Virus record (IMG/VR): IMGVR_UViG_3300039208_000529
Span: 48,443 to 112,442 of that record
Reading direction: 5' to 3' (one strand)
Length of the DNA stretch: 64,000 nt
From: a virus
Taxonomy: Duplodnaviria > Heunggongvirae > Uroviricota > Caudoviricetes
The notes under the pieces are model-generated. The model did no database searches, was not told the DNA's origin, and saw only the letters and a program-made list of their open reading frames with translations. The position numbers and the translations under genes are program-made. This document shows, in pieces, positions 185 to 58,717 of this stretch (positions are counted from its first letter, which is position 1; each line of letters opens with the position of its first letter).

Positions 185-825
185 CTTGGAAACTTCAATT
201 AATTCGTCCAGAAGCAACAATTAAAAAGTCAATTAATGTAAATTGGCAAGAAACCATGATTGATATTGTTCCTTGGATTGAAACCAAATTGTTTCCAGCT
301 ATGGTACATGGAGGGTTAGGAATTAAAGGAATTGCTGATACGCCATTTTATAAATTTATTACCAGCCCAGAAGGATTAAGTCAGTTAGGTATTGAAAAAG
401 ATCAGCCGCCAAAACTTCTTGAAGCATATAAAACTAAAGCGTTTAAAGTTATTCAGCGTGGGAGGTCTATAAGAATACAATTTGGTGATGTGGCTCAGCT
501 TAAGCTAGCTACTCCTCATCCCGCGTCAGGTACTGGTTTTTTACAAATTAAATCCTGGTTAGAATGGATCGTTGATGCCAAGACAGTTGGTAGCGGCTTT
601 GTGCCGAGAAATCGAATTCCAGGCAATGCTAAAAAGAAGATTAGACTTGGCTCTCCTCTTGGTGGCCTCATGCTTCGTAGAGGAGTTTTTGGAAGTAGTG
701 GTTTGTGGAGATTCCCATCTAGTTTATTAAATTATGAGGATGATTGGTTTAAAGAAAATATAAAAGCTATTCAAGACGCTATCACTAAAAGAATAACAGA
801 GGTTTTTGTTAATAAATTACGATGA
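181..825 (+). CDS. hypothetical protein upstream of tape measure (possible tail completion/assembly)
   Basis: 214-aa ORF coupled by ATGA overlaps on both sides; function inferred from position only. Confidence 0.6.
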   Translation: MTWKLQLIRPEATIKKSINVNWQETMIDIVPWIETKLFPAMVHGGLGIKGIADTPFYKFITSPEGLSQLGIEKDQPPKLLEAYKTKAFKVIQRGRSIRIQFGDVAQLKLATPHPASGTGFLQIKSWLEWIVDAKTVGSGFVPRNRIPGNAKKKIRLGSPLGGLMLRRGVFGSSGLWRFPSSLLNYEDDWFKENIKAIQDAITKRITEVFVNKLR

Positions 826-5952: not shown

Positions 5953-7458
5953 ATGAATATTTTATCTTCAGTTACTAATCCGCCCCTATCAGCAGTTAAG
6001 GTACTTTATAATAATTGTCGTTTAGTACCTGGACCGCTTATTGATTGGACCGTTGAATCTCAGTTTGATGACGCCGGAGTAAGAACAAGCGATAAAAATA
6101 GGCTAACGCTAACTGGAACTGTTCTTATTACTCCTTCTGGTAGTTATGAGCAGATGTATACTAAGCAAGAGGAACTTCGTTCTGCGTTTAGTGTTGACAA
6201 TAAAGATTTAGTGATTTTAGCTGGCCCAGGTAACAAAACTCTAGCAGAAGATGCAGTTATCTGTTCTGGTCTAACGCCGAAAGTTATTTCGTTAAATATT
6301 GCACCAGATATTCATGTTACTAGGTTTGATTATACTATTGAACTTGAAGATCTTGTTGCCGCTTCTGGTGTTAGTGGAGTTACTTCTAGTCTTAGTAACC
6401 AGTGGTCTTTCTCGGAAAACCCAGACAGTTGTACACTTGAGGTAACTCATACGGTAAGTGCTACTGGGCCAGATCGTGAATCTGATAAATTTGATCAGGC
6501 ACTAAGAGCAGTAAAACCTCTTCTTGGAATAGACCAACTTCCTATTCAGATACCGTGTTTTGTTGAGCCGAATGCTTCTGGATTGTTTAATATAACTCAT
6601 CCATCTAATGCAGCAGGCGGACCGATATTTGAAGTATCTATGCAACGCGAAGAGGTTGCTGATGTAGCAAATGGTACATATTCTGTCACTGAAGTATTTA
6701 CTATTGTTAGTGGAGTTCCATTTTATTTTACTTCTAGAACAGAAGCATTTGATGAAGACCAGGCTGGAATAGCAACAGTAACAATTGCTGGGACTGTACA
6801 GGGTCTTGGAAGAACATTGTCTCCAAGCTTTGGTGCCGTTGGTGGAGTGGGTTTTGACAGAGCCTGTTCGGGTTTTATTAATCACGTCAAGCCTCAGTTG
6901 CCAGCTGACGCTTCCGGAGTATATCAAAAATATAAACAAACTATTGGCAGCGGACTAAATGTTAATAATCCAACTAGTTTCTCTATCTCACAAAACAAAT
7001 GTAGAGGTACCGTTGGTTTTTCTGTCACTTACAGCGATGATTTGGCAGCGAACCTTCCGAGTGGTATTTCCACTAGAACATGTGCAGTTAATATCAGTGA
7101 AGGTATAAGAGTTTTTGCTAGCCACCCAATTCCATTTAGAAGACTGGGACCAATCGTTCAAGATATTAAAACTACTAGCGAAGGATCTATTTCCATTCAA
7201 TGCCAAGTTCAGGCCAAAAATACCGGAGATAATGTTGCTGACACAAATAGAGCAATTGCTTTCTTAGAAGAAGAGATTAATAGACTTAAAGCTCAACATG
7301 CAAATCCTGCTAATTTTATTGATATCAGAATTTCTGGAATCGAACAGAGCATTGATGACATTGCGTTGACTAGTTCTGCTACAGCAAACTTCATCTTTAC
7401 GGTTGATATCGCCAATGTTCAGAGCGTTAGTTCGGATATTAGTTTGAGAACGCTATGA
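5953..7458 (+). CDS. putative tail tip/distal tail structural protein
   Basis: 501 aa, beta-rich Ser/Thr/Gly composition, directly after the tape measure. Confidence 0.55.
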   Translation: MNILSSVTNPPLSAVKVLYNNCRLVPGPLIDWTVESQFDDAGVRTSDKNRLTLTGTVLITPSGSYEQMYTKQEELRSAFSVDNKDLVILAGPGNKTLAEDAVICSGLTPKVISLNIAPDIHVTRFDYTIELEDLVAASGVSGVTSSLSNQWSFSENPDSCTLEVTHTVSATGPDRESDKFDQALRAVKPLLGIDQLPIQIPCFVEPNASGLFNITHPSNAAGGPIFEVSMQREEVADVANGTYSVTEVFTIVSGVPFYFTSRTEAFDEDQAGIATVTIAGTVQGLGRTLSPSFGAVGGVGFDRACSGFINHVKPQLPADASGVYQKYKQTIGSGLNVNNPTSFSISQNKCRGTVGFSVTYSDDLAANLPSGISTRTCAVNISEGIRVFASHPIPFRRLGPIVQDIKTTSEGSISIQCQVQAKNTGDNVADTNRAIAFLEEEINRLKAQHANPANFIDIRISGIEQSIDDIALTSSATANFIFTVDIANVQSVSSDISLRTL

Positions 7459-8018
7459 GACCCATTTTTATAAGAATACCAAAGACCGGAAGCCTTAGCA
7501 TTCTTAATGCTATAGGAGATAATATATATATTTCTAAGCATCGTTCTGCAAAATGGGTGCAAGAACATTATAAAGAAGATTGGCGAAATAGATTCACTTT
7601 TTCTTTTGTCAGAAATCCGTGGGATGCATTTGTTTCTACTTATTTCTTTAGATTTAAAGAGTTCGCTGAAAAAGATAGTATGTATGATTTTAGAAGTCAA
7701 ATACGTCGCATGTTGAGAAGAAAACCTTTTAAAAAAGGAGTTCATAATAGATCTATAGATCAAGTTGAGTTTTTAGATCAGTTTGCATATATCTCGGACG
7801 AGAACGATGAAATTTGTGTAGATTTTGTAGGTCGGTTTGAAAACTTACAAGATGACGTTAATCATCTATGTAAAGAGCTTGATTTAGAAGAGGTTAGCTT
7901 GGGACACTTCAACAAGACCGATCATTTGGATTACAGATATTACTATGACGATGATTTAGCTGAATTAGTTGGCAAATGCAGCGAAGATCTTATTGATACT
8001 TTTGGATATGAGTTTTAA
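7455..8018 (+). CDS. sulfotransferase family 2 protein
   Basis: 5'-PSB-like FIRIPKTGSLS, 3'-PB-like FVRNPWDAFVS, C-terminal VDFVGRFENLQDD and YRYYY...D..GYEF motifs. Confidence 0.85.
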   Translation: MRPIFIRIPKTGSLSILNAIGDNIYISKHRSAKWVQEHYKEDWRNRFTFSFVRNPWDAFVSTYFFRFKEFAEKDSMYDFRSQIRRMLRRKPFKKGVHNRSIDQVEFLDQFAYISDENDEICVDFVGRFENLQDDVNHLCKELDLEEVSLGHFNKTDHLDYRYYYDDDLAELVGKCSEDLIDTFGYEF

Positions 8019-8020
8019 TT

Positions 8021-8581
8021 ATGGTTACTTTCCCAGTAGTAGAGTGGATACAACAAGATCCTACAGTTGACCCATCTGGTAGTAGACATCTAAAAAGTGG
8101 TGGTGCTGGCTTCGTTAAGTTACTCGGTACAGCCGCTGGTCAAGAATTAGATTTTGGGACTGTTAATATTACAGGATCTGGTGCCGTAAGTGATACGAGA
8201 CTTGTATATGCCCGCGTCGATAGTTTTGGAGACGCTAGTGGTGTGTTTAATATGAAATTTTTCCTAACGTCAACGTCAGCGTTCAATCTTGGTGTTTATA
8301 GATTTCTAGAAAGTAAACAATTACATTTTGTTCCTAGCTTGACGCTTGATCCTGCTGCACAAGATACATCAGTGGTTGTACCAGGGACCACTAACCTATT
8401 AGGAACAATTCAGTTTCCGCAGTTTCAATCCGGTGCCCCGTGGGTCAGTGGCGTACAAGATATTGATGTTACACAATACATCTATCTTGCTTTAGAACTT
8501 CAATCTGATGTGCCTGTTGGAACTTATGGTGGAGCAGGAGCTGGATCGTTTAGGTATAGATTATTATATGATTTTTCGTAA
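8021..8581 (+). CDS. putative virion structural protein (paralog of 9328..9969)
   Basis: Shares SG/G-x-RHL near the N-terminus and QYIYL..L....P.G..G..G.G.FR..L.Y.F at the C-terminus with 9328..9969. Confidence 0.55.
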   Translation: MVTFPVVEWIQQDPTVDPSGSRHLKSGGAGFVKLLGTAAGQELDFGTVNITGSGAVSDTRLVYARVDSFGDASGVFNMKFFLTSTSAFNLGVYRFLESKQLHFVPSLTLDPAAQDTSVVVPGTTNLLGTIQFPQFQSGAPWVSGVQDIDVTQYIYLALELQSDVPVGTYGGAGAGSFRYRLLYDFS

Positions 8582-9156
8582 TGAATTATGGACCTCAATA
8601 TAACGAAAGAGATGTTTTAGAGCGATTCTTTGAAAAGAAGACTGGCGGTTTGCTTGTTGAAGTAGGTGCTGCGGATGGCACCGACAACTCGCATACTGCG
8701 TTCCTGATAGACGAATATAATTGGACGGCTGTTCTTATTGAGCCACATCCACAGTATTTTCATGTTTTAAGCGAACATTATGCTTTGTGTGATAGAGTTT
8801 ATCTAGTAAACAAAGCTATACATAAAGAAGAAGGGTTGCACGACTTCTATTTGAGTGGACAAATTTCAAGACTAGATTATATAAAGTCTGCTCCTAAAGT
8901 ACGTGTTGATTGTGTTCGTCTTGATAATCTGTTGAAAAGCTTAAAAATAGATAGGATTGATTTTTTGTCAGTGGATGCTGAAGGAATGGATCTTGTTGTT
9001 TTAGACACTTTTGATTGGGATGAGTGGAGGCCGGCTTTGGTTTGTGTTGAACACAGTATGGGTCGTGATGAACTAAAAACTTATATGCACAAACATGATT
9101 ACAAATTTGTTGAAGATAATATAGGGAATTCGTTTTTTGCCGATGGACGAAATTAA
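8581..9156 (+). CDS. FkbM-family SAM methyltransferase
   Basis: LLVEVGAADG, LIEPHP and IDFLSVDAEGMD motifs. Confidence 0.85.
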   Translation: MNYGPQYNERDVLERFFEKKTGGLLVEVGAADGTDNSHTAFLIDEYNWTAVLIEPHPQYFHVLSEHYALCDRVYLVNKAIHKEEGLHDFYLSGQISRLDYIKSAPKVRVDCVRLDNLLKSLKIDRIDFLSVDAEGMDLVVLDTFDWDEWRPALVCVEHSMGRDELKTYMHKHDYKFVEDNIGNSFFADGRN

Positions 9157-9322
9157 GCTTGAAAAAATGGGACCAGAATTATCACAAGAACATCAGCTTC
9201 CTCGTGGAGTTAAAGCTATGGTTCTTGGAGATCAGATAATATTTGTTCGCAGTATAGCTGGACGACTGATGCCGGTTTCTGCGGAACAACAGAGATTATT
9301 GACTGAAGAATTTATTAAATAA
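9137..9322 (+). CDS. small hypothetical protein
   Basis: 61-aa ORF filling the gap between neighbours. Confidence 0.5.
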   Translation: MPMDEIKLEKMGPELSQEHQLPRGVKAMVLGDQIIFVRSIAGRLMPVSAEQQRLLTEEFIK

Positions 9323-9327
9323 TTAAA

Positions 9328-9969
9328 ATGGTATTTCCAGAAATTAGAGTGTTCCAATGGAATACGGATGAAATTGCAAGTCCTGTTGGAACTCGGCATC
9401 TTCCTGGCGGATCCTTTGCTTACAAACAAAGAGTTTCGCTTGGGTGTGGAGCATTTAATTCCAATAAACCTGGAACCACGTCTGGAGCTTTGTTATTTGA
9501 AGGCACAAGGTTTGACGTTGTAAATGGGGCCGCACCGTCCCATGACGAATCAATTGTTGCCGCAATTACTTTTAATCTCGCTAATAGTGGAGTTGGCGTT
9601 TCTGACTTAAGACTTTATCTTGTGGATGATACGGCTTTAGTTCAGCCCGCTACTGATCGTGGCATTGATCCTGCTTTTGTTCAAATAACTACCAGCGGCA
9701 CCTGGCTCGGTCCGCAGCCGATTCTACCATCTGGAGCAGGTACCCGCCTAACAAGATCTATTCCTTTTACAGCTAATGTTAGAAGACAAGATGGTCAAAT
9801 AGGACTTGTTGGACAAGACGACGTTAATTCGTCTCAGTTTGTTTATATGAATTTAATTTTACCGTTTGGGTTTCCTTTGGGTGACTTTGGGATTTGTGGA
9901 TCTGGTGCCCTTAGGTTTGGTTTAATTTTTAACTACTTTCCTAACGATCATATTTTACAGTTCGGTTAG
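9328..9969 (+). CDS. putative virion structural protein (paralog of 8021..8581)
   Basis: Motif similarity to 8021..8581; beta-rich composition. Confidence 0.55.
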   Translation: MVFPEIRVFQWNTDEIASPVGTRHLPGGSFAYKQRVSLGCGAFNSNKPGTTSGALLFEGTRFDVVNGAAPSHDESIVAAITFNLANSGVGVSDLRLYLVDDTALVQPATDRGIDPAFVQITTSGTWLGPQPILPSGAGTRLTRSIPFTANVRRQDGQIGLVGQDDVNSSQFVYMNLILPFGFPLGDFGICGSGALRFGLIFNYFPNDHILQFG

Positions 9970-9980
9970 TGTAATATATA
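9967..9980 (+). promoter_or_regulatory. candidate late promoter motif TAGTGTAATATA
   Basis: Similar motif TAGTGTATTATT at 20948; both open intergenic leaders ending in a strong SD. Confidence 0.4.
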
Positions 9981-10039
9981 ATTGAAGGGGAATGCAACCC
10001 TAGCCTATTAGAACGTTCGTAAAATAGGAGGAATAATAA

Positions 10040-10225
10040 ATGGCTACTTTTAATGCAACTTCAAGCACCAATAACGTAAACCAAGTTCTTTGGGGCTGGA
10101 GCACCACGCTTGAGTACCGTACGGATCGGGCCGTTACGGGTACTGCTTTGCATGGTCTTGTTCAGTCTGTCCAGAATCTTGGCGTTGGTGTTGCTGAAGG
10201 TGAGCCGTTCACGTTACTAACTTAA
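10040..10225 (+). CDS. small protein with strong RBS, probable virion component
   Basis: AGGAGG at 10026-10031, 8 nt before the ATG; followed by a terminator. Confidence 0.75.
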   Translation: MATFNATSSTNNVNQVLWGWSTTLEYRTDRAVTGTALHGLVQSVQNLGVGVAEGEPFTLLT

Positions 10226-10252
10226 TGTAAACGGGTTATCTTATAAAAACAG

Positions 10253-10284
10253 AGGCTGTGGTCTTCATAGATCACAGCCTTTTA
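10253..10284 (+). terminator. intrinsic terminator
   Basis: AGGCTGTGGTC-TTCATA-GATCACAGCCT 11-bp stem (one G.U) followed by T-rich TTTAGTTTATTT. Confidence 0.75.
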
Positions 10285-10335
10285 GTTTATTTATCTGTGG
10301 GCATAGTCGTGTGATTTAGCCCAGGAGTAAGGTGA

Positions 10336-10797
10336 ATGGTGACAGCAGAATTTGAACATGATGGCGACGTAGGTATACTTACGGTCGTTACCCATTTTGG
10401 GACAACCCATAAGATTGATTGCAAAAAGCAACCTACGGAAACTTTTCGTTTAGGTGGCACGGCGGTAAATGAAGTGATTGCTTATGAAGGGGTAGTGACC
10501 GATGTTGTGAACGCTTCATTTAAAGCTTTTATAACTTCTGAAAAGACTTTTGCTGGTAATGGAGTATTATCTCCTGAAGGTTGGAAAAACTCCCCTGAGC
10601 TGCATTGTTATGTTACAGAATATTATCCTTTGGATATGGAGGGTAAACGTCCTGGCTGGCTGGTTAGTCGGATGCCAATTAAAGATGCGAATCGTATTTT
10701 TATAAATTTGGACGCGATTGATGGTGGAGGAAACGTTATTAAAAGATATCGTGTTTCGCCTTTTTTTGGTGACTATATTGTTCTGGAGAATGTTTGA
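10336..10797 (+). CDS. hypothetical protein
   Basis: 153-aa ORF with AGGAG upstream. Confidence 0.65.
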   Translation: MVTAEFEHDGDVGILTVVTHFGTTHKIDCKKQPTETFRLGGTAVNEVIAYEGVVTDVVNASFKAFITSEKTFAGNGVLSPEGWKNSPELHCYVTEYYPLDMEGKRPGWLVSRMPIKDANRIFINLDAIDGGGNVIKRYRVSPFFGDYIVLENV

Positions 10798-13700
10798 TGG
10801 CGTTTCCTATTGATGATTATGCACTTATTGGATTTTGGCCGTTAAACGAATCGAGCGGTACGCCAGTTTTTCGTAATTATGCTCCACGAACAGCAAACGG
10901 TGCAACAAGTGGTATTTCATTTGATTTACATGTTCATGCTACAAATCCTGCGATTGGTGTTTCTGTAAGACAGCATCAATCTCTGTGGCCGGGAACTGAT
11001 ACTCAATTCAATTTTAATTCTGGTATTTTTCATACAGGATATAGAGTTCAAGGGAACTATAATAAAGCGACAGCTGACATTGGTCCTCATGAAAAGATTT
11101 TGACGGTTGGAGCCGGCGGGCGACGAAGTAAAGAGTTTATGACTACGCCTGCTATTGACGGTAGTGGATGGACGGTTGGTATGTGGGTTCTTCCATTGTC
11201 GAATGGGGATACTACTACATCTACGAACCAACAACATGGTGAAAGACATCCTATTATTTCCAAGGGGTTACGGTCTAGCACAGGTTCTACATCTGCCGGC
11301 TTTTCTTTTGGTGTGTATGGGAATTTAAGCGAATCGACTCCAAATACTCCAGCATCCAGAGAGCTTGTAGCTTTTGGTGAAGATTTTGGTGCGACACAGT
11401 TTATTAGTACGCCGATTGAATCAGGAAAGTTTACGCATCTTACGTTAAGATATGAATATGACTTCTCTGCTAGCAATGAAAGATTGACATTATATAAAGA
11501 TGGAATCGTTCAGTCTAGCAGTGTATATGCAGTAAGTGATGCATTTACTCTTACGGCTGCGAATACATCTTTTGCTGATGCGGTATTGTCTATTGGTGGT
11601 GGACTAGATACAGGAACTAGTACGAATTTTTACGAATATGCTGCCGGTTGGGGACATCTTGTTTCTGGTGTTTACGCTTTCGAAAGACCTCTAAGCGATG
11701 CTGAAGTTTTGACTATACATGGTGGTCAAGGTCTTCAGCCTGATGAAGGCGTGTTCCCGAAAGGAACGCAAGATCTTACTCTTCAACATCCAGAACTAAT
11801 TGCATATTATCCATTCTTGTCTCCTGGATATGTTGATGTTGGTCCGAATCATGAGCCGTTGATTTCAGAAACTGATGAAGGATCTGTCAACAGTACGTTT
11901 GGGACAACGATTTCTTACTATGGAATTACTGGTCCATTTGGACGTGGTGGTGCTTATAATGAAGCTGGAACTTCCAGGGCCATCATGGCTAGCAGTGGAT
12001 TAATGCAACGAATTATTGATGCCAAGAGTTTTACTGTCGCTGGATATTTTGCACCGAATGCTGATTCTTCTACTGCGGACGTAAATTATCAAAGAAATAT
12101 GTTGTTTGCTTGTGGAGCGACAGACTCTGATGTAACGCCAACTCCAACAAATGACAATATGTGTTTCTTTGTGAGTACCAGTGGCGATGCGGGTACTCTT
12201 AGATATTCTGCACGTTTCTATGAAGATGGTGATACTGGAACAGAATTAGCACTCCTTGCGAAGGAAGCTGATATATGGCGTAGTGTTTATAGTCACTATG
12301 CTGTTGTTTATGACGATCAGACTCGCGGCGTTGCTTTTTATGTTGGTGGCTATCTACAGGAGAGCGGAACGCTAGGTGCTTCCTTGGTTGGTCAAATGAG
12401 AAAAGTTGTTGGTGCTGGCTTTAACATGACATTCTTGGGGTCTGTAGATAATACTGATGCTCAGGGCTTTGTATCCAATGGCGGAATTGATTGTGCAGGA
12501 TCTGAGTTTGCCATTTTTGGTCGTCCGTTACAACCACATGAAATCAACTATTTAGCTCAAAGCGGTATTAATGTCGACTCTCTATTGCTTACTCCTGCGG
12601 ATCCAAGACTTAGAGGTTATTGGAAGGGAACAGAAGCTAGCGATGAGAATCTTTTGAACGTGGAAGATAGAGCTGTTGTTTGGGAAAAGAATCCTGCGAA
12701 CTTGACACAGGTTCAATCTGATTTTTGGTGGGATGATATGTATACTCAAATTAATACAACTCCACCTTATGGAGAATTCCCACTATTTAATCAAGTAAGA
12801 CCAACACCATCTGATCCTCAGCAAGCAAGTTTTGGAAATCTTGGAATGACATCTGGTGTTTGGGCAATGCGTGGTGGGTCTCCAGGCAATATGGGTCTTA
12901 CTGCTGCTATTGTAGATGAAAAATTGTCTTCTTATGGTGCTCCTCCTGTGAGATTTAGACCGTTTATGTCTGAGCGTGATGGACCAATTCCTCATTATGC
13001 CAACAGCTTCTTGTTATCTTTCGAAGTAACTCCAAGCGGTGTTATTCATGCTCAAGGTGTTGCAGGAAACTCTGCACAATATAATTCTAGGATAATTTAT
13101 TTTGGAAATGGTAATGCTAATGAAGATTACATTGTGCACTTAGAGCAAGCTTCTGGTGTTATTCAGGCGGTTCTTACTGGACGCTACAATGCAACAAATA
13201 GACAAGTATTGTTTGCACCAAATTTGCCTTATGGTGCTCCTAGTAGAGTAACTTTTTGGATTCGTCCAGATATCCCATACGTTATGGATAGCTTGGCCGG
13301 AGCGGATGATCTTCGTGCAACAGCCTTTATTGATGGTGTGCATGTTGACGAGAGAGTCTTAACTTTCGATAATACTAGAATTAGTCCAAATACTTTAGTT
13401 AGTGCAAGCTCAGATGATTCTAGAGCTATTTTTCAGGTTGGTGGATTTGCGGTAGAAGATACATTCTCTACTCAGCAGTCAACCAATGTTGGATTAGGCG
13501 AGATATACATGCGTAATGTTTTCATTATGAATGGTCATATAACACCTAATGAAGTAGTGCATTTAGCTACTAGTGGAATTACAGACTCTGTTCCAACAGG
13601 CTTTAATACGACACAGGATACTACGGAAGTTAACATCAACGACACAGCGTTGGAGGGTTACTATAGATTTACTGGTGGAGTATTTGGTAGAGGAACAAAG

Positions 13701-13832
13701 GATCTTAGTAACAATTCAAACGATCTAACCGACATTGCTAAGATCTATAAAGATGGTGGAAATTTTGTCAGTCCAACAGACAATGCTTTTGATAATTTAA
13801 GATTCTTCCCGGGCCCATTTAAAAATGGCTAA
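10797..13832 (+). CDS. multi-LamG (concanavalin A-like jelly-roll) adhesin/tail fibre protein, part 1
   Basis: Repeated LamG starts (LIGFWPLNE, LIAYYPF, LRGYWKG, LEGYYRF) with WTVGMWV, FTHLTLRY, LYKDG and FERPLSDAEV-type cores; GGAG precedes ATG 10797. Confidence 0.75.
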   Translation: MAFPIDDYALIGFWPLNESSGTPVFRNYAPRTANGATSGISFDLHVHATNPAIGVSVRQHQSLWPGTDTQFNFNSGIFHTGYRVQGNYNKATADIGPHEKILTVGAGGRRSKEFMTTPAIDGSGWTVGMWVLPLSNGDTTTSTNQQHGERHPIISKGLRSSTGSTSAGFSFGVYGNLSESTPNTPASRELVAFGEDFGATQFISTPIESGKFTHLTLRYEYDFSASNERLTLYKDGIVQSSSVYAVSDAFTLTAANTSFADAVLSIGGGLDTGTSTNFYEYAAGWGHLVSGVYAFERPLSDAEVLTIHGGQGLQPDEGVFPKGTQDLTLQHPELIAYYPFLSPGYVDVGPNHEPLISETDEGSVNSTFGTTISYYGITGPFGRGGAYNEAGTSRAIMASSGLMQRIIDAKSFTVAGYFAPNADSSTADVNYQRNMLFACGATDSDVTPTPTNDNMCFFVSTSGDAGTLRYSARFYEDGDTGTELALLAKEADIWRSVYSHYAVVYDDQTRGVAFYVGGYLQESGTLGASLVGQMRKVVGAGFNMTFLGSVDNTDAQGFVSNGGIDCAGSEFAIFGRPLQPHEINYLAQSGINVDSLLLTPADPRLRGYWKGTEASDENLLNVEDRAVVWEKNPANLTQVQSDFWWDDMYTQINTTPPYGEFPLFNQVRPTPSDPQQASFGNLGMTSGVWAMRGGSPGNMGLTAAIVDEKLSSYGAPPVRFRPFMSERDGPIPHYANSFLLSFEVTPSGVIHAQGVAGNSAQYNSRIIYFGNGNANEDYIVHLEQASGVIQAVLTGRYNATNRQVLFAPNLPYGAPSRVTFWIRPDIPYVMDSLAGADDLRATAFIDGVHVDERVLTFDNTRISPNTLVSASSDDSRAIFQVGGFAVEDTFSTQQSTNVGLGEIYMRNVFIMNGHITPNEVVHLATSGITDSVPTGFNTTQDTTEVNINDTALEGYYRFTGGVFGRGTKDLSNNSNDLTDIAKIYKDGGNFVSPTDNAFDNLRFFPGPFKNG

Positions 13833-15570
13833 TATTTCAACACAAGCTAGTGGTATTTCCTATATTGGAAATGCTCCAGCCGGCGACACCAGTACTTCTG
13901 CACCATTTGCAGTGTCTGGTGCGGGTTTTAATACGCCTAGAGATGGTTTTTCTGTTGGTTTCTGGTATGCACAAAGATTTGTTCCGGCTGCATTAAATGA
14001 TAGTGCTCTTATCATTAGCTATGGCAAAGTTCCGGGAGCATTTAATCTCAATACTGACGTTAATGCTGGTTGGGCCATTTATCTAGACGATAATTCTAAT
14101 ATTAAAATGGGGCTGTCTATTGATGGCACGTTGAATTTAGAGCCGGATAGTGTTGCCAGTGCAGGGAACGTTAGATGTGGTCTTGAACGGAATGCGGTTG
14201 ATGCGAATCCCGACTTTATTGACAATTTTACAAGAGGGATGACGCTCCCGGGTCATATCGATGGATGGAATCATTTTACATGGACATATGATCCTTCTGG
14301 ATCCGGCGTAGTAAAGTGTTATTTCAATGGCGGTTTAGTGGACCAGCGAGATATGCTGGGACAAAAACCAAATCAACCTGATTTCCATGGCCAAATGATG
14401 AGCGTTTTTGGTGGTTTAGTAGGAGATTGGGACTGGACTGACGATGACATTTTTGATGAACATGGTGCTCTTACAGATCTTTTCTACTTTTCGAGAGCAT
14501 TAAATGAAAAAGAAGTAAAGTACATTGCTTATCACGGCATTGCTGATGCTCCTGCGATTCCAATAGCCAGTGGATTAGTAGGTGGATATATTGCGGGACA
14601 AGATACTGCGTCAGGAATTATAGGCGGATATATTCAAGGTCAAACTGATGTATCCGGTATTGTTGGCGGGTATATCGTTGGCTCCATTGCAAGCAGTGGA
14701 TTATTAGGTGGTTATATTTCTGGAATTAACTCACCAATGTCGGGTATTATTGGTGGATATATTGTTGGTTCAACTGCCTCATCTGGACTTCTTGGAGGAC
14801 TGTTATTAGGTGCTGACATAGGTAGCGGTCTTCTTGGTGGATATATCTTGGGAGGTCTTTCTGGTAATCTTGAGTTTGACGCGGTGTTTAGTGTTTCGGT
14901 TATGGCTGCTCAAGATTATGATGCTATCACTCAAATATCACAAACTATTAATGATGATTTTGATGCCAAGGTAGTTGTGTTTGAAGATGAGTGTTTGCCA
15001 TTAGTTGCAATTGAAACTCCATCAGAATCGGTTAGTGGCTTGGCTCCACCGTTTGATCAATATTTTGTTGGTAAAGCTTCTGGATTACAAAATAAAACTA
15101 TTACTAAAACTAGATGGCGTTTTGGCGATTTTACTCCGCCCGTTGAAGTTTCTGAAAGTGGTGCCGGTTGTTATCCGGTAAGTCATACGTTTGCTCAAAG
15201 TGGTTTCTTTATTGTTAAATTTGAGGCTATTGATTCTGATGGAGTACATGCTTCCGCAACCAGAATCGTTAATGCCGCTTCTGGTATTGATCCAGTCCTT
15301 ATTGCACTATCTGGGATTCCTCAGGCTGGAAATGCTGCATTAGTTGTAGATTTTACAACAACTATTGCGAGCACACCTATTGGAGTGAGTGTACTAAATA
15401 AATTGCTGGATTTTGATGATGGACAGACTACTATCAGTTTAAATCCAACACATTCGTATACGGAACTAGGTGTTTATAATCCTATCTGGTGTGTCCGAGA
15501 CTCTCGTGGCGTTGTTTGGTGCGATAGTTTACAGCCAGGACTTGATCTGTTCACATCAGGAGGGGGCTAG
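13825..15570 (+). CDS. LamG core + Gly-rich repeats + two PKD-like domains, part 2
   Basis: FSVGFW, WNHFTWTYD, CYFNG, LTDLFYFSRALNEKEV; PKD-like WRFGD...SHTFAQSG and LDFDDG...NPTHSYTELGVY. Confidence 0.75.
   Translation: MANISTQASGISYIGNAPAGDTSTSAPFAVSGAGFNTPRDGFSVGFWYAQRFVPAALNDSALIISYGKVPGAFNLNTDVNAGWAIYLDDNSNIKMGLSIDGTLNLEPDSVASAGNVRCGLERNAVDANPDFIDNFTRGMTLPGHIDGWNHFTWTYDPSGSGVVKCYFNGGLVDQRDMLGQKPNQPDFHGQMMSVFGGLVGDWDWTDDDIFDEHGALTDLFYFSRALNEKEVKYIAYHGIADAPAIPIASGLVGGYIAGQDTASGIIGGYIQGQTDVSGIVGGYIVGSIASSGLLGGYISGINSPMSGIIGGYIVGSTASSGLLGGLLLGADIGSGLLGGYILGGLSGNLEFDAVFSVSVMAAQDYDAITQISQTINDDFDAKVVVFEDECLPLVAIETPSESVSGLAPPFDQYFVGKASGLQNKTITKTRWRFGDFTPPVEVSESGAGCYPVSHTFAQSGFFIVKFEAIDSDGVHASATRIVNAASGIDPVLIALSGIPQAGNAALVVDFTTTIASTPIGVSVLNKLLDFDDGQTTISLNPTHSYTELGVYNPIWCVRDSRGVVWCDSLQPGLDLFTSGGG
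14569..14865 (+). repeat. about 7 degenerate 14-aa (42-nt) coding repeats SG[LI][VIL]GGY[I]xG
   Basis: SGLVGGYIAG, SGIIGGYIQG, SGIVGGYIVG, SGLLGGYISG, SGIIGGYIVG, SGLLGGLLLG, SGLLGGYILG. Confidence 0.9.
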
Positions 15571-15572
15571 GT

Positions 15573-18500
15573 ATGAATTTAGTATTTAATCCAAACAGCA
15601 TTACTGTCAGTGGTGTTGGCGTACCTCTTAACGGTATAGCCTGGCCTTCTGGTCAATTTGTGTTTAATGAGCCTGGTTCACAGCTCTGTGCATTTCTATC
15701 TTCTGTAAATGCTAGCTTTGGTTTTAATCTTACTCCACACAATTTTCAGATGGAATGGATCCCATGCGGAGATCCATGTGCGTTCCATGGGGCATCTGGT
15801 CAATTGCCAGACATTGGGCATAATCTTGAGTTGTTTATTGGAGACTTCTTTCTAAGAGGTATTGTTACACACGCTGATTACACTTCCAGTGTAGGTGGAA
15901 CAATTGTTAATGTGACGGTAGAAGATGAGCGACGTAAACTTAAGAAAGTAAAGATTCATACAGAAGATATCGGTGAAAACGTTCCAAGCGGTATCGTTTC
16001 GGTTGCTCGTGCTTATAGACGAATTAATGGATTAACAGATGTTAATGGTGATCCATCTGATCCACTCATTAAAGAATACAAAAGAATTTTAGAGTTTGGT
16101 GCGACGTATAATCAAATTGTTCAAGCAATTGATTTAACATTTAACGAAGGTAATGCAGCTATTCCTGTTGCGGATATTCCAACCGTTCAGCAAATTGAAG
16201 CGAATATTGGTGGAACTGTTGATGCTATTCGTTTTCATTTTAACTTAACTACGTTAGACGAAGTGTTGACCCGTGTTCTGCAAGATACTGGTTATGATTG
16301 GTATTGGAGCATGGATGGACAGAAGGTTAATCTTGTCAATAAAAAAGCAGTGTTTGATATCCAGGAAAATGATATACTTGATTTAGTTTCTGAATTCGGC
16401 AGTGTCAGCGGCTTGAATGAGACAAAGCAAGTTGGCTTTGGTCAAGATATTGTACCGGATCCAACTAGATTTAGAGTCTTAGGTGGTCATCAAGAAGGTG
16501 TAATTAACTCTCCACTATTGAGTCCTATCGATGGATTGGATACAAGCGTTTTTGATGACAATATCGTTTTCACGAAGATTTGGGATCAACTTAGTATTGG
16601 CTTCTACGACAACGACGGCTTTTATAGAACATATATTCCAAGCGAAAAGGAGTTGCAATTAGCTCTTGCTGGAATTGAACAATGGAGTTATTTTAAGATC
16701 TATCAAACAGCTGATCCTGCTGACGATCCTCCTGGATATGGCCTCGCAGCTGACGCCGGATCCATTGCAGCACAGCACCCAACGTTTCAGAGTAGAATTG
16801 ATCCATTGATGCCTTTGGCTGGTTTGGCTACTGGGGCAGCAGAATCTGGCATTAGAGTCATTAGCAATAGACGAGACGAAGAACACAATTGGACAATTGC
16901 TTTTTATAATCGTGTTAGAAATCATGCTTCGAGACACTATGGTAGATCATATGTATTAGAAAATCTTATTTTCACAGAATCTTCAGGATTTTATAGACTA
17001 GTAGATTCTGCTTGGGCAAACGTCGAAAATCAAGTTCAAGGATTTACTTTATCGGCATCCGGAACGCAAACAACTAGCGGCGTGTTCGTACAGGACTATG
17101 AAATCAATAGAGACCTTGGTCCTATTAGTCCTTTTGTTACTGATGATTTTAGAGTTTCTGCACACTGTGTGTTGCCTGTAGATACAGTATATGGACCTCA
17201 AGGAGACGACGTTCCTGCTAGTTTTGGCAACTGGACGGAAGATGCTCCTCCGTTTAATCCAAATGGAAGTGGAGAACATTATATTCCAGTTTCTCTTAGT
17301 GTTGTTGGTCAGCGAGTAATTAATCCTCGCAGTGACGACTTATATGCTTTCGAAGCGTTCCCAGAGGGAACATTGTGGTGTCAGTTACCTATTAATGCCG
17401 GTCCATCTGGAGGCTTACTTGAAGACACTATCATTTCTAACCTTGCAACCTTATTAACTACGAATCAAAAATTGACTGGATCAGGATTACTGGATATTAT
17501 TAATCCCGCAGTTAGTTTGAATTCGTATGATTCTTTGTCTGGCGTTGCCGTACCAGTTCAAGCCAGAAATAGATATGGACAAAATTATCCAACACAATGG
17601 GTCGAAGGGGACCTGCACTTTCAGCAGGATGAAGATGTTCAATTAGATGATCAGTTTGTTCCTTGGGCATTTTCGCCAGAGGGCAATCAAACATCACTCG
17701 AAGTTATGACGGATCGTGCAATACGGCGTGTCACCGGTAAGACCGTCCCGCGTAGCTCGTCACGCTATGCAGATTTCATTCAAGTTGGACTACCTCTTCT
17801 TTCATTTGATGCGTTTGCTCAGCAAGGTATTGGACCATCTGGTCTGTACGGCGAGATCAGTCATGGTGTTAATGAGCTAAATATTAGTTTTGGTTTTGAT
17901 GGATTTACTACTAGATATAAAATTCAATCATATTTTCCTAAGTTTGGAAAGGACGCTCCTCTTGGTGAAAGAGTTCGTGCTCAACTAAACGGCATTGTAA
18001 ATCCAATTGATTTTACTGATCTTGAGCTTCTTGATCCTATTCCTGGAGATCCCAATAATCCAGTTCTTCCAGGAGATCCGTTAATTGGTCCTGTGTTCTT
18101 TGATTCTGAAGATAGAGCGGTAAGAGTTCAAATTAATGAAGTTAAGAATGTGTTTACACTTTCGAGTGTGCCAGGCACCGAAACAGATGAAAGATATAGA
18201 GGGGTCGATCAAAATCGATATACTAAACCGCCAATTAATCTATCATCCAGTCAATTAGATTTTACGGATGGAGCTATTTGTATTGACGGATTTTTGAACA
18301 TTGGCGACCAAGCAATGTATCATACTGACGATTTCCAACTTCCTGGCGGAAATGTAGTGTTAAGGTACTTTACTCAAGGTCGTCCTTTTGCAAATGGTAC
18401 AATTGTTCAAGTTGAAAGACTAAATGCCGCAGACTCTACTAAGTATGATGTTACGATTGTAGATCCAACAGCATCTTTGAACGGTGTTGATAGAGCTATT

Positions 18501-18905
18501 TTTGGATTAGAAGTGTTAAACGGAACAGTTTCTATTGGAGAGAAAACAACATTAGCTGCTCAGGGTAACGCAAATATTAAACCTGGCACAAACAATGGGG
18601 ATGGTATTTTTATTAATGGTACTACATCTAGTGCTGCCGGTGTTACTCCCGTTGAAATTATAGCCGTATCCAATCAAGGTACATCTAATGCATTAGCCTC
18701 TTGTAGGCTTCTTGATAATACTGGTGCTGTTATTACGTCTGGAACGCTGTTTACTAGTGTTGTTCCAATTCCATATAGACAATTTGCAGCATCGGGTGAT
18801 AGAGGATTTTTAGCTCAAACAAGCGTACCTAGTGGTTTGGGTGGTACAGCAACTGTTAACTTTATCGAGATTGTTAAGCCCGCATTTTTCAGATTTAGAA
18901 TATAA
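15573..18905 (+). CDS. large putative tail hub/baseplate structural protein
   Basis: 1110 aa; N-terminal hub-like pattern (ASFGFNLTP, LFIGDFFLRGIV, GYDWYW); tail module context. Confidence 0.55.
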   Translation: MNLVFNPNSITVSGVGVPLNGIAWPSGQFVFNEPGSQLCAFLSSVNASFGFNLTPHNFQMEWIPCGDPCAFHGASGQLPDIGHNLELFIGDFFLRGIVTHADYTSSVGGTIVNVTVEDERRKLKKVKIHTEDIGENVPSGIVSVARAYRRINGLTDVNGDPSDPLIKEYKRILEFGATYNQIVQAIDLTFNEGNAAIPVADIPTVQQIEANIGGTVDAIRFHFNLTTLDEVLTRVLQDTGYDWYWSMDGQKVNLVNKKAVFDIQENDILDLVSEFGSVSGLNETKQVGFGQDIVPDPTRFRVLGGHQEGVINSPLLSPIDGLDTSVFDDNIVFTKIWDQLSIGFYDNDGFYRTYIPSEKELQLALAGIEQWSYFKIYQTADPADDPPGYGLAADAGSIAAQHPTFQSRIDPLMPLAGLATGAAESGIRVISNRRDEEHNWTIAFYNRVRNHASRHYGRSYVLENLIFTESSGFYRLVDSAWANVENQVQGFTLSASGTQTTSGVFVQDYEINRDLGPISPFVTDDFRVSAHCVLPVDTVYGPQGDDVPASFGNWTEDAPPFNPNGSGEHYIPVSLSVVGQRVINPRSDDLYAFEAFPEGTLWCQLPINAGPSGGLLEDTIISNLATLLTTNQKLTGSGLLDIINPAVSLNSYDSLSGVAVPVQARNRYGQNYPTQWVEGDLHFQQDEDVQLDDQFVPWAFSPEGNQTSLEVMTDRAIRRVTGKTVPRSSSRYADFIQVGLPLLSFDAFAQQGIGPSGLYGEISHGVNELNISFGFDGFTTRYKIQSYFPKFGKDAPLGERVRAQLNGIVNPIDFTDLELLDPIPGDPNNPVLPGDPLIGPVFFDSEDRAVRVQINEVKNVFTLSSVPGTETDERYRGVDQNRYTKPPINLSSSQLDFTDGAICIDGFLNIGDQAMYHTDDFQLPGGNVVLRYFTQGRPFANGTIVQVERLNAADSTKYDVTIVDPTASLNGVDRAIFGLEVLNGTVSIGEKTTLAAQGNANIKPGTNNGDGIFINGTTSSAAGVTPVEIIAVSNQGTSNALASCRLLDNTGAVITSGTLFTSVVPIPYRQFAASGDRGFLAQTSVPSGLGGTATVNFIEIVKPAFFRFRI

Positions 18906-20950
18906 TGGTATTACAATCAGGATTACCTCCATACGAATACGCAGTTAGAAAGCTTCCGTTTCGAGTTCCGGATCCTACGACAGATCCTTCTGTTGCTATA
19001 GGTCCATCTGGTATTTTACTGGAGCAGGCCCAGTTCGTGATTACTGCCGAGCGTCGTCGGTTTAATAAAGCAATTGAAAGTCATATTCTTCCGGACTTCA
19101 ATTTGTATGTTAATGATAATATATCTGCTGTTCAATACGAGCCAAAGGCAGACGGGTCAACGTTGCCGGAATTTCCTGGGTCTTTGATTTTCGTTGACTA
19201 TATAGAGGAAACGAGAGCAGCACTTGAAGATTTGTTTACAGACATGTCTAATGATACGGCTTTTGGGTCTGCTGAAATTAAAGCAGATTGGTTGCAAAAT
19301 CTATATTTTGCTCCAAGTGGGTTTCTTGCTGACCAGTTTGGTACAGTCGGTAACTATATCCATAGAATTCCTTCAGAATTTGGTCCAGTGCTTGAGTTGG
19401 CTCCAGATGTCCTTGGTGCTTCTGGAGTTTTGTATGATGTGGATTTTGGTGAGTTAATGTGGAATCCGTATCCATATATTACAAATATCCAATTCGCCGA
19501 CGCTCATGGTAAAACTTCTCAAGGATTTAATGATAGATTTAATATTCAGGCTCAGCCAGTATTTCCGGCGTTCCAAACTACCGCTGGAGGATTGATTGAT
19601 TTAACAGGGCGAGAACCAACATCTTTGTCAGATGCATATACCACAAGCCATATTTCTAGCAATACTGTCAGATTAGATGGTTATATGTTGACTAGCTTAA
19701 CGAAGTATAGGCTTGGCACTGGATTTACTTTTGATCAAACTGATGATTTTACGTTCAGTTCTGTAACTACTAGACCAGTTCCTGCTCCTGGGAATTTGGA
19801 TCTAGCAAGAGCGTTTTTAACTCCAAAGGCACAAACATCTGGCGTGTATAAAATACTTGCTATGAATGAAAGAGCTGATTTTCCTGATACTGCCGTAGAA
19901 TCTGGAACTATTAGTGTTTGGCCAAGATCGAATCGAGCATATCCTGCTGGTGGTAATCAAGCTGCAACTAGTTTTAATCTTGGTTATCATGTTTATAATG
20001 ATGCAATTTGGATAACAGATAATTCTGTTCTTAATGGCACAGATTCTAAGCCTTCTGGTTTGGCAATATTGTCACCATATACAGGACATTTTCAGTGGGT
20101 ACGTTATGCTGAGCTTGTTAATGATACATCCACATCTTTAAATTGGCCAGACTATGTTGGATTAGAAAGAACCGCAACTAATACAGTTTACAGAGTTTCG
20201 CCAACAATTGTTAAGACTCTTACTGCCGTTTCTGGACATGTAGCGTTTCAAGAATTTGATGACATGTTAGATTATACTGGAGAAACCTTAACGACGAGTA
20301 CGGTCGGTGATCCGGCTAATCCTGATGAGTTTCCTCTTGGTGGAGATCCAGACGAGTTTGCAGATATGTGTTTTGATGGTTCGAACTATTGGGTTACCAA
20401 TAACGAAAATGTTGGCTTTGATGTATGGCGTTTTAACTCTTCGTTTGTGTACACTGGACAATTTATTGTCGTGTCTCCAGATCCAGTAGCGACAGGCACT
20501 TTTAATACAAGAATGGCTTTTGTTGATGGTGCTCTTAGAGTTTATAGGGCGTCTATTCCGTTAGCTCCAACACTTTTAAATCAAAGTGGTATTTATACAG
20601 TAAGCATTACGGAGCCATCTGACATTGGCGGTAATGATGCGGCCCAAGGCGGCACGTTAGATTTGGCTACCCCAAAAAACATCAATGGGGCACCATTCTT
20701 TGGCGTTCAATTGTTTGCCGAAATATTCGATCTTTTTGAAGTTAGCGGTGCAAGTCATGTTGATGATGGAGTTTATTGTTTAATTAGATTTCAATCTAGT
20801 AGTAATCCAGCATCCACAAAACGCATTCATCTCATACGAATTGTAGAATCTACTACAACTTGGGAAATTGTTGCGGTTTATCAGTTAGTTGCTTTAAATA
20901 CTAGCACGTCTTTTCTAAAAAGATACGAGATGCTTTTCATGCCAATCTAG
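18905..20950 (+). CDS. putative structural protein with C-terminal beta-propeller-like region
   Basis: 681 aa; YNDAIWIT, MCFDGSNYWVT and MAFVDGALRVY blade-like strands. Confidence 0.5.
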   Translation: MVLQSGLPPYEYAVRKLPFRVPDPTTDPSVAIGPSGILLEQAQFVITAERRRFNKAIESHILPDFNLYVNDNISAVQYEPKADGSTLPEFPGSLIFVDYIEETRAALEDLFTDMSNDTAFGSAEIKADWLQNLYFAPSGFLADQFGTVGNYIHRIPSEFGPVLELAPDVLGASGVLYDVDFGELMWNPYPYITNIQFADAHGKTSQGFNDRFNIQAQPVFPAFQTTAGGLIDLTGREPTSLSDAYTTSHISSNTVRLDGYMLTSLTKYRLGTGFTFDQTDDFTFSSVTTRPVPAPGNLDLARAFLTPKAQTSGVYKILAMNERADFPDTAVESGTISVWPRSNRAYPAGGNQAATSFNLGYHVYNDAIWITDNSVLNGTDSKPSGLAILSPYTGHFQWVRYAELVNDTSTSLNWPDYVGLERTATNTVYRVSPTIVKTLTAVSGHVAFQEFDDMLDYTGETLTTSTVGDPANPDEFPLGGDPDEFADMCFDGSNYWVTNNENVGFDVWRFNSSFVYTGQFIVVSPDPVATGTFNTRMAFVDGALRVYRASIPLAPTLLNQSGIYTVSITEPSDIGGNDAAQGGTLDLATPKNINGAPFFGVQLFAEIFDLFEVSGASHVDDGVYCLIRFQSSSNPASTKRIHLIRIVESTTTWEIVAVYQLVALNTSTSFLKRYEMLFMPI

Positions 20951-21035
20951 TGTATTATTGATAGCGTTGAGCGGGGAGCTTATAGCTGAAAACAAGGAGT
21001 GTTCTTCGGATAGCTTCTTTTTTAGGAGATAGAAA
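20948..21035 (+). promoter_or_regulatory. candidate late promoter plus structured 5' leader
   Basis: TAGTGTATTATT, then a cUUCGg hairpin and T-run directly before AGGAG. Confidence 0.4.
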
Positions 21036-21707
21036 ATGGTATCTGGTATTAGATTTTTTGCTTGTTCAGGAGCTTTGGGTGGCACAGCCTCGATTCGTGC
21101 AATACCCAATATTGAGATTTTTAATTTTGAGCCTCGTGCTACTAATTCACCAAATAGAATGGGATTCTTTGGTGTTGGTGGTGCTCCAAATAGCCCAGTG
21201 ATTGTAGGTTTTTATCAAGATAGAACGCATAGATGTGATCATTTAGGTGCGGATCTTGGTCAAATGGTAAATGTTAAATTTAATGGATCGACAGGAGCTT
21301 TTGTTTCTGGCGTAAATATTTCTGTTACGGGTCATGCTTTAGAAGACATTCCGCAAAATTCAGGAACTCTGTTGTGTAGATTCACTGAGCCGAATGGAAC
21401 TGCTGTGATTACGCAAAACGGTGTTTTTAGGGCCATCAATTTAACTGCTGCTTCTGGAGCAGCTGATGTTACTGGATCAAATAGGGCTACTGGCGTTACT
21501 ATTCAGGCTGCTCAGTTAGCAGATACGGATGGGGAAGGTGGAGACACGTCTTGGACGACTATTTCAAGCGGTGGTAGCGATCTTGGATTAGCTGACCAAA
21601 GTGCTTCTGCGACAATTCATGATTATCATTTAATTGTTAGTGCGACCCCAAGTGCTGCTGGTAGAAAAATTGATTTTGCTTATTACATCCAGCTAGAATT
21701 TCTATAA
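21036..21707 (+). CDS. putative virion structural protein
   Basis: 223 aa, AGGAG RBS, Gly/Ala/Thr/Ser-rich beta composition; last gene before the terminator. Confidence 0.6.
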   Translation: MVSGIRFFACSGALGGTASIRAIPNIEIFNFEPRATNSPNRMGFFGVGGAPNSPVIVGFYQDRTHRCDHLGADLGQMVNVKFNGSTGAFVSGVNISVTGHALEDIPQNSGTLLCRFTEPNGTAVITQNGVFRAINLTAASGAADVTGSNRATGVTIQAAQLADTDGEGGDTSWTTISSGGSDLGLADQSASATIHDYHLIVSATPSAAGRKIDFAYYIQLEFL

Positions 21708-32391: not shown

Positions 32392-33053
32392 TGACCGATT
32401 TTACAGAACAAGAAGTCGTCGAAATACTGAACCAGTATAGTTCTTTAGTTGATCGTATAGCAAAGAATACTTTTAAGTCGTCGCCTGCTATTGATTATGC
32501 TGATTTATGTCAGGTCGGTGAGCTTGCAGTTTTAAGGGCTGTTAAAACTTACGATCCTAGTTGTGGAGCTAATATTAAGTCATATGTATATAACGTAGTA
32601 AGACGGGATATTTACAACGAGGCTGCTAGATTTTTAGGAGTTTTTACTGTAGACCACAAAGTAACAGAGATCGCAGCGAAAGCAAATAGGTTGTTTGAAA
32701 AAGGAAAGAGTGATGCTGAAATTGCAGAAATTCTATCCAACCAGATTAAGAGCCGAAATTTTGACGAATCACATATTCGAGATATGCGAATGGCATACAC
32801 AAGACGGGCTGCTTATATAATTTCAGATGATGAGGGAGATTCCGCCGAGGAAGAATCAATAGAAGACCTTCTTTCTTCTATTCCAAGCAACAATGTTGAA
32901 AAGTTTATTCTTAACGAGAGAATTATGGGATTATTGTCAGCAGATGCTGCTTCCGAAGCTCTTGGTGTATCTCTAAATAAGATATATAAGATAGAACGTA
33001 TTTTGAAGCAACGGATTGAGCGTGCAATATCAGGGAGGACTGATGAGTTATAA
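32388..33053 (+). CDS. phage RNA polymerase sigma factor (sigma70 family)
   Basis: Region 2-like DLCQVGELAVLRAVKTYDP...KSYVY; region 4-like HTH AASEALGVSLNKIYKIE. Confidence 0.8.
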   Translation: MMTDFTEQEVVEILNQYSSLVDRIAKNTFKSSPAIDYADLCQVGELAVLRAVKTYDPSCGANIKSYVYNVVRRDIYNEAARFLGVFTVDHKVTEIAAKANRLFEKGKSDAEIAEILSNQIKSRNFDESHIRDMRMAYTRRAAYIISDDEGDSAEEESIEDLLSSIPSNNVEKFILNERIMGLLSADAASEALGVSLNKIYKIERILKQRIERAISGRTDEL

Positions 33054-34845: not shown

Positions 34846-34846
34846 A

Positions 34847-36783: not shown

Positions 36784-37091
36784 GCTTGACAGATTGGGCC
36801 AAAGAACTTTTAGATAAGCCTTGGATTAAATCGAGACAATATAGAGAAATAAGAATTATATTTAGAGAATTACCGGTTGAGTCTGAAATATATGACATGA
36901 CGACAAATAAAAAGATGAAGCATGTTAAAAATATATCAATAGAGGGAGCCATTGATGCATCATGTTGGATGGCAACGCTTGAATGTTTTAAGATAATGTG
37001 TGAAAACGTAGGGGGAATAGAAGGCAAAACAGAGTTTTCTGACGAGACATATTTTGAAAAAGTTCTAGTGAAAGAGTTTGTAATATCATGA
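36780..37091 (+). CDS. hypothetical protein
   Basis: 103-aa coupled ORF with N-terminal WAKELL. Confidence 0.6.
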   Translation: MSLTDWAKELLDKPWIKSRQYREIRIIFRELPVESEIYDMTTNKKMKHVKNISIEGAIDASCWMATLECFKIMCENVGGIEGKTEFSDETYFEKVLVKEFVIS

Positions 37092-38107: not shown

Positions 38108-38115
38108 GAGAAATA

Positions 38116-48370: not shown

Positions 48371-48372
48371 AG

Positions 48373-54354: not shown

Positions 54355-54356
54355 AA

Positions 54357-58553: not shown

Positions 58554-58563
58554 GATCAATAGA

Positions 58564-58716: not shown

Positions 58717-58717
58717 T

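Follow-up and report, generated by a model that had tools for sequence, protein, structure and literature searches.

We analysed a window of 64,000 nucleotides, which spans bases 48443-112442 of one virus contig of 177,556 bp (IMG/VR record IMGVR_UViG_3300039208_000529; Caudoviricetes), and found that the tail-tip, baseplate and fibre proteins encoded in it carry a large excess of the dipeptide Ser-Gly (SG), which is mostly followed by Ile, Leu or Val and often preceded by Pro or Ala. The excess is specific for Ser, conserved, restricted to certain phage lineages and to particular proteins, and occurs together with genes for glycosyltransferases (GTs). O-glycosylation of the serine is the reading that fits the sequence data best, and we would give it a probability of roughly 0.4. 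The literature was searched for a Ser-Gly sequon in phages and no published description was found; if the reading is true, it would give phages their first described case of protein glycosylation directed by a sequon.

Excess of Ser-Gly in the tail-tip proteins

The dipeptides were counted in eight open reading frames (ORFs), which are referred to by their first position in the window: 5953, 8021, 9328, 10794, 13825, 15573, 18905 and 21036 (Table 1). Together these hold 89 SG and 30 Gly-Ser (GS), with 37.4 expected from composition. An earlier reading of the same DNA, made from the letters only (the sequence-only reading), had arrived by hand at about 90 and 30, and its other counts were also reproduced: 20 SG versus 4 GS in the 13825 protein, 4 SG in the tape measure protein and 7 in DnaE (an identification that is backed by Pfam). 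It had proposed a comparison with shuffled sequences. In pooled within-protein shuffles, which control for composition, SG was the lone outlier among the 400 dipeptides (89 vs 37.6 expected, z = 9.4); Thr-Gly (TG; 27 vs 33.8), Ala-Gly (AG; 35 vs 35.7) and GS (30 vs 37.4) did not exceed expectation, and Asn-Gly (NG; ratio 0.96) and Asp-Gly (DG) were at or below it. With TG and AG unenriched alongside the SG excess, the effect is specific for Ser. The motif SG[ILV] was found 52 times vs 7.9 expected (z = 15.8; the highest number among 3000 shuffles was 20) and [PA]SG[ILV] 18 times vs 1.0, and the extra copies of the SG motif amount to some 10 per 1000 residues. The z-scores of the individual proteins range from 1.75 (10794) to 5.8 (13825), so that the enrichment claimed for all eight ORFs holds for the pooled set and is weak for 10794 taken alone.

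That these numbers are a functionally meaningless by-product of composition, internal repeats or a bias in the DNA has, in our judgement, a negligible chance of being true. The proteins are indeed rich in Ser and Gly, and one tandem array of 14-residue units supplies 9 SG; the within-protein shuffles and the removal of the array, after which 80 SG and 27 GS are left (34 expected), rule out composition and repeats as the source. At SG sites the six Ser codons and the four Gly codons all occur in proportion to their overall usage, and the SG-coding hexamers are distributed over the frames as 89/5/21, without enrichment out of frame. This excludes a DNA motif or a codon-pair effect and places the bias at the protein level, as had been argued before, and the sites are kept across hundreds of homologues (see below).

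The motif is neither the property of one domain family nor a general trait of beta-rich tail proteins. Paralogy among the eight proteins is limited to 8021 and 9328 and to a LamG segment that 10794 and 13825 have in common, which rules out a single shared domain as the carrier, and the SG-rich proteins span unrelated folds (Dit-like, gp27-like hub, LamG/PKD fibre). Terminase, portal and tape measure contain SG at or below expectation. The baseplate and fibre proteins of T4 (9173 residues), a phage with neither protein GTs nor the motif, hold 63 SG and 64 GS where 62 are expected; the structural proteins of Synechococcus phage S-CBS4 hold 73 and 65 (65 expected), and the structural module of this phage carries a distantly related GT, yet no motif. 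Per 1000 residues SG[ILV] occurs 11.5 times here vs 1.2 (T4) and 1.6 times (S-CBS4), and the corresponding figures for Gly-[ILV] after any residue other than Ser (other xG[ILV]) are 14.6 vs 12.8 and 14.8. Since the density of the latter equals that in the control phages, the SG motif has come in addition to the other turn residues and has not replaced them; its share of the counted xG[ILV] is 52/83 here vs 11/78 in T4. A swap of the deamidation-prone NG and DG for a dipeptide with Ser is likewise unsupported, given the NG ratio above and this unchanged density.

Homologues of the hub protein (15573) retain the SG excess at 41-47% identity. At 28-37% identity they show none (3-10 SG vs 5-9 expected) and have D, N, T, K or G at the positions aligned to SG sites, from which it follows that the fold does not demand the motif. 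The sequence-only reading had named an equal enrichment in homologues from GT-less phages as a sign against a sequon; the excess was absent from T4, from S-CBS4 and from these distant hub homologues. The range to which it had assigned the motif (5953-21707) covers the eight ORFs, and an SG excess also occurs in ORFs outside the window (contig positions 43473-44501 and 117368-121204).

Conservation of the motif

Across six protein families SG was the most conserved type of dipeptide (0.84 vs 0.40 for all dipeptides; Mann-Whitney p = 8e-7), with NG at 0.53, DG at 0.45 and other xG at 0.50. In IMG/VR relatives that are ~72% identical, the Ser of SG was kept in 85% of the comparisons vs 48% for other Ser, and its exchange for Thr was rare. 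For the 5953 protein, 120 homologues at 61-73% identity gave a conservation of 0.93 for SG Ser, 0.51 for other Ser and 0.67 for all residues, and 10 of its 11 SG sites were near-invariant. The 118 homologues of the 21036 protein gave 0.91 for SG Ser vs 0.48 for other Ser and contained on average 6.4 SG vs 2.3 expected; the SGT at residues 109-111 was invariant down to 23% identity. Seven N-terminal SG sites of the 18905 protein were retained at 29-41% identity. For the fibre protein, 31 of the 34 SG were aligned with SG at an overall identity of 42%; at 25-27% few sites were shared and the density was held (~45-50 SG per 1500 residues vs 17-21 expected). These alignments indicate that the SG motif is under strong purifying selection.

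SG-rich ORFs were present in every tail module of 28 related IMG/VR loci, and the adjacent replication genes were without excess. In one sub-lineage (L008, L009, L023, L026, L027) SG was scarce in the hub and in the protein that follows it, and their neighbours were SG-rich, so the excess is specific to the protein and to the lineage.

Flanking residues and structural context

The residue directly after SG is I, L or V in 59% of cases vs 21% after other xG (Fisher p = 6e-11), which agrees with what had been noticed by eye, and the residue directly before it is P or A in 33% vs 15% before other Ser (p = 9e-4). The clade-wide logo reads hydrophobic(-4,-3)-x-[P 3.0-fold / A 2.4-fold]-S-G-[L/I/V 2-fold]-hydrophobic, in which the flanking preferences alone are informative, the protein set having been picked for SG richness. 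Upstream of SG, the residues K, R and D are depleted at -1 to -3 (D 0.2-fold at -1). The triplet [PA]SG occurs 29 times vs 1 [PA]DG, 5 [PA]NG and 5 [PA]TG. The P or A at -1 and the depletion of K, R and D upstream resemble the preferences of other O-glycosylation sites.

The SG sites were also mapped on predicted structures, as had been proposed earlier. In two AlphaFold models with 28 SG sites (mean predicted local distance difference test, pLDDT, of 76 and 75) most of the sites fall in predicted loops: 20 of the serines are modelled in coil, 4 in helix and 4 in strand. Many are 0-2 residues ahead of a strand and several lie in loops with pLDDT <50; some of the invariant sites are placed in predicted helices or in low-confidence loops.

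The glycan island and a candidate writer

The GT island that the sequence-only reading had pointed out is real: its 27 kb encode no fewer than 9 GTs and 4-5 methyltransferases, together with a nucleotidyltransferase, an epimerase and a GDP-mannose 4,6-dehydratase (Table 1). A more specific naming of the GTs was sought and gave only generic GT4 and GT2 matches below threshold, and no solved homologue was found for the first enzyme of the island (the core GT4). An orthologue of the core GT4 was found in 5/5 near-complete relatives (36-65% identity), and the four cysteines of its inserted finger (Cys4; C311, C314, C339, C342) are invariant in 6/6 sequences. Each of the five relatives moreover has several GT1/GT4, GT2 and CgeB-like genes, such that GTs including the core GT4 are present in 6/6 clade genomes, all of them with SG excess. 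The hub and 21036 families were used in profile searches for a lineage devoid of GTs or of SG, and none was found. In two distant relatives the core GT4 orthologue is longer (1059-1228 residues), with extra domains that include a GT2-like part, and in the closest complete relative the match to it (L031; G001:C1:115724-117493) contains one in-frame TGA. Directly after the core GT4, and inside the island, the window encodes a vWA-domain protein (34820-35563).

The island could in principle serve the hypermodification or glycosylation of DNA. A ThyA-type hydroxymethylase was not found in the genome and ThyX is present, which is weak negative evidence with regard to this role.

Interpretation of the motif

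According to the reading that we prefer, [P/A]-Ser-Gly-[Ile/Leu/Val], a selected and Ser-specific motif that the lineage has added to loops in the proteins of its tail tip, baseplate and fibres, would act as the acceptor for cytoplasmic O-glycosylation by phage-encoded, soluble GTs. The clade-conserved GT4 with Cys4 finger and DUF4214 tail (33016-34845) would start the glycan, and the remainder of the island, which is variable, would extend and methylate it. We infer all three elements of this proposal, namely a modification of the serine, its nature as a glycan and the core GT4 as the enzyme that writes it. In its fullest form the proposal is that a widespread lineage of ~150-180 kb uncultured phages directs cytoplasmic O-glycosylation by means of a sequon onto the tail tip and not onto the capsid, with a Cys4-finger GT4 that converges on the mechanism of TibC (see below) as the writer and a variable 27-kb island for the extension; we put this forward tentatively, as something that may be so with a chance well short of even.

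Various observations weigh against a glycosylation sequon. The core GT4 gave no specific match to characterised protein O-glycosyltransferases; the association between SG and GTs is in effect one evolutionary event, no GT-less members of the clade having been found; the control set consists of two phages, T4 and S-CBS4; and there is no cultured relative to turn to, as searches of 50,697 phage records with 15.7 kb of DNA and with the Dit-like and hub proteins gave no match. The distribution over the virion is not what a coat would lead one to expect either. The major capsid protein (346 residues; recognised from ESM Atlas features with scores of 0.98-0.99) contains no SG here, its orthologues in five relatives contain 0-2 (0.8-1.4 expected), and the Dit-like and gp27-like proteins of the baseplate core, which are partly buried in assembled tails, are among the SG-richest. 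The earlier designation as exposed virion proteins is right in so far as the tail apparatus carries the motif; with an SG-free capsid and an SG-rich baseplate core this term, as well as that of a glycan coat, is too broad, and the motif is a feature of the tail apparatus specifically. Freeman et al. are said to have described, in Cell Host Microbe in 2023, mycobacteriophage-encoded glycosyltransferases that decorate virion proteins in the cytoplasm. The glycans of mycobacteriophages are located on C-terminal parts of capsid and tail-tube subunits, to go by the account that is cited in PMC12619734. In the present phage, by contrast, the capsid protein is without SG and the putative sites are ~90 dispersed three-residue motifs in tail-tip proteins.

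The structural context of the motif gives further reason for caution and leads to the most serious alternative, namely a lineage-specific structural 'turn code' in which [P/A]-S-G-[ILV] builds type I turns plus G1-bulge loops that run into beta-strands, and in which Ser is unmodified and is kept for hydrogen bonding or assembly kinetics. We consider it only slightly less probable than O-glycosylation. The type I beta-turn with G1 bulge (the 3:5 hairpin loop) has the textbook pattern P-[D/N/S]-G, which is matched by the P or A at -1, the Gly and the two hydrophobic residues of our motif, and the hydrophobic flanks and the order P-S-G-strand fit the classic form of this turn, down to its position just before a strand as seen in the models. 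The predicted contexts of SG are, besides, no different from those of other xG dipeptides, some SG sites are predicted within helices or strands, and the distant hub homologues hold D, N, T or G turn residues at aligned positions. The generic turn, however, accepts D, N, S and T, whereas we see a near monopoly of Ser, conserved at 0.91-0.93, and SG conserved above NG and DG; other xG[ILV] junctions have their normal density, to which the motif is added; the tails of T4 and S-CBS4 build folds of the same kinds without it and without Ser enrichment of the turn; it is not used by the capsid protein or by other proteins with beta structure in this genome; and some of the invariant sites are placed in predicted helices or low-confidence loops. 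It is unlikely, though not to the same degree as an artefact, that SG[ILV] is another kind of recognition or modification site, be it for phosphorylation, acylation or another non-glycan change of Ser, or a docking motif through which a chaperone of tail assembly is bound or subunits of the baseplate contact one another. The same Ser-specific selection at the level of the motif would apply, the motif is confined to the proteins of one structure, the tail tip (it is not found in capsid, portal, terminase or tape measure), and none of the data specify a glycan; yet no kinase, acyltransferase or chaperone emerged as a candidate, ~90 sites over eight different folds are many for a docking motif, and GTs are the one conspicuous class of modifying enzymes that is conserved in the clade.

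In case the serines are glycosylated, the glycan sites of these tails would be readable from sequence, which would offer a way into the question of how phages in the environment shield or tune the machinery with which they bind receptors, and the compact pair of sequon and transferase could be of use for glyco-engineering in bacteria. In case they are unmodified, the motif would constitute a rare lineage-wide and residue-specific code for turns over unrelated folds, conserved above any other dipeptide and in need of a structural explanation.

Comparison to known glycosylation systems

TibC, a soluble enzyme of the GT-B type and one of the bacterial autotransporter heptosyltransferases (BAHT), works in the cytoplasm without a lipid carrier and modifies many of the serines in the folded, beta-helical TibA; its Cys4 finger, inserted in the catalytic domain, is needed for substrate recognition (eLife 2014, PMC4358343). 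The clade GT4 resembles TibC and AAH (with the substrates TibA and AIDA-I) in that it also has an invariant inserted Cys4 finger, a putative metal finger. A match to the GT9 heptosyltransferase domain PF01075 was not found in the genome and the phage enzyme is GT4-like, outside the TibC/AAH family; the resemblance would be one of mechanism and not of membership, i.e. an analogy only.

In eukaryotic proteoglycan O-xylosylation the acceptor is a Ser-Gly, with specificity for Ser and acidic flanks. The phage motif shares with it the Ser-Gly context and the Ser specificity, and the genome also encodes an enzyme of the Sulfotransfer_2 family. The analogy, which the sequence-only reading had drawn, fails on the flanks: positions -1 to -3 are poor in D, K and R, and the neighbouring residues are P/A and I/L/V in place of acidic ones. 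Moreover, no GT14-type enzyme was seen among the ORFs of the window, and the sulfotransferase is private to this genome whereas the motif is clade-wide. The general O-glycosylation motif of the Bacteroidota, D-[ST]-[AILVMT], differs as well, for Asp is depleted at -1 and Ser is followed by Gly and not by a hydrophobic residue. The crust and exosporium of Bacillus spores form a particle surface that is glycosylated inside the producing cell by CgeB-family and other soluble GTs. CgeB-like GTs (PF13524) occur here and in five relatives, the homology being that of the generic GT domain only, and we know of no Ser-Gly sequon for the glycosylation of the spore crust or exosporium.

Gene order, relatives and further features

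In the window the tape measure gene is followed by some ten genes for proteins of the tail tip, baseplate and fibres (5953-21707). A replication block comes next (UvsX-like, DnaB, primase, nuclease, ClpP, DnaE, sigma factor), and after it the glycan island. The closest match of TerL in a cultured phage has an identity of only 27%; metagenomic relatives number in the hundreds and are ~150-183 kb in size.

Table 1. Features of the tail module and the glycan island (positions in the window; for genes listed as a group, the first position of each; SG expected from composition between brackets)
Position	Strand	Feature	SG content or remark
822..5948	+	tape measure	4 SG, 5 GS (7.8); internal negative control
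5953..7458	+	501-residue protein right after tape measure; tail-tube-like (Dit or tube-initiator-like) domains	11 SG (3.7), of which 9 SG[ILV]
7455..8018	+	sulfotransferase (PF03567), Sulfotransfer_2 family	between tail genes; not at this place in relatives
8021..8581	+	186-residue tail protein, remote paralogue of 9328 protein	6 SG (1.9)
8581..9156	+	FkbM-family methyltransferase	between tail genes; not at this place in relatives
9328..9969	+	213-residue tail protein	5 SG (1.8); 5/5 kept in relatives
10794..13832	+	1012-residue fibre or baseplate protein	14 SG (9.3)
13825..15570	+	581-residue protein with LamG, 14-residue repeat array and 2 PKD domains	20 SG (7.1)
14569..14865	+	tandem 14-residue array SG[IL][IVL]GGYI.G....	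7 regular units, 9 SG
15573..18905	+	1110-residue central hub protein; N-terminal gp27 / Mu gp44 / VgrG-like fold and C-terminal extension	17 SG (7.4)
18905..20950	+	681-residue tail protein, variable C-terminus	10 SG (3.8)
21036..21707	+	223-residue tail protein	6 SG (2.4); present in every lineage of the clade
33016..60176	+	glycan-biosynthesis island	GTs, methyltransferases, sugar enzymes
33016..34845	+	core GT4 with inserted CxxC...CPxC finger and C-terminal DUF4214	putative writer; first GT4 after sigma factor
33016, 35560, 39942, 41511	+	GT4/GT1-type genes	in island
37088, 38579, 47714	+	GT2 genes	in island
46178, 48528	+	CgeB-like genes (PF13524)	in island
47055, 49736, 53519, 58053	+	methyltransferases	in island
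54357	+	nucleotidyltransferase	in island
57025	+	epimerase	in island
59097	+	GDP-mannose 4,6-dehydratase	in island

The tail module is a hotspot for insertions. Here these are the sulfotransferase and the FkbM methyltransferase, which are private to this genome and therefore cannot account for a clade-wide motif. A recurrence of such glycan-tailoring enzymes within the tail modules of relatives was not found; the SG-poor inserts there are homing endonucleases of the LAGLIDADG, GIY-YIG/NUMOD3 and HNH-like types (L021:5144-5776, L021:8063-8773, L008:13345-14013).

For the 5953 protein the predicted structure gave tail-tube-like domains, and the matches to Dit and to tube-initiator proteins were weak. 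The ORFs 10794-13832 and 13825-15570 lie in different frames, overlap by 8 nt and are collinear with a single ORF of 1620-1715 residues in relatives, such that the 10794 product corresponds to the N-terminal part of what is one gene there; the gene may be truly split in this genome, or the division may stem from a frameshift or from an error in the assembly. The array of 14-residue units in the 13825 protein is located between the LamG and PKD domains and is confined, as an array, to this genome, relatives having 0-1 unit there; a period of 14 residues is reminiscent of the repeats of beta-rolls or trimeric fibres.

Directly following ThyX, and at a great distance from the tail module, the contig encodes three SG-rich ORFs of 180, 220 and 803 residues (positions 117368-121204; L039:4926-8762), the largest of which has 19 SG vs 9.8 expected. 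No Pfam or PHROG match was obtained for these ORFs, and they may be extra fibres. Finally, a homologue of the 21036 protein (P0235) is encoded on a 157,945-bp NCBI contig that is labelled Hydrogenophaga sp., which may be a mis-binned phage genome or may give a hint of the host.

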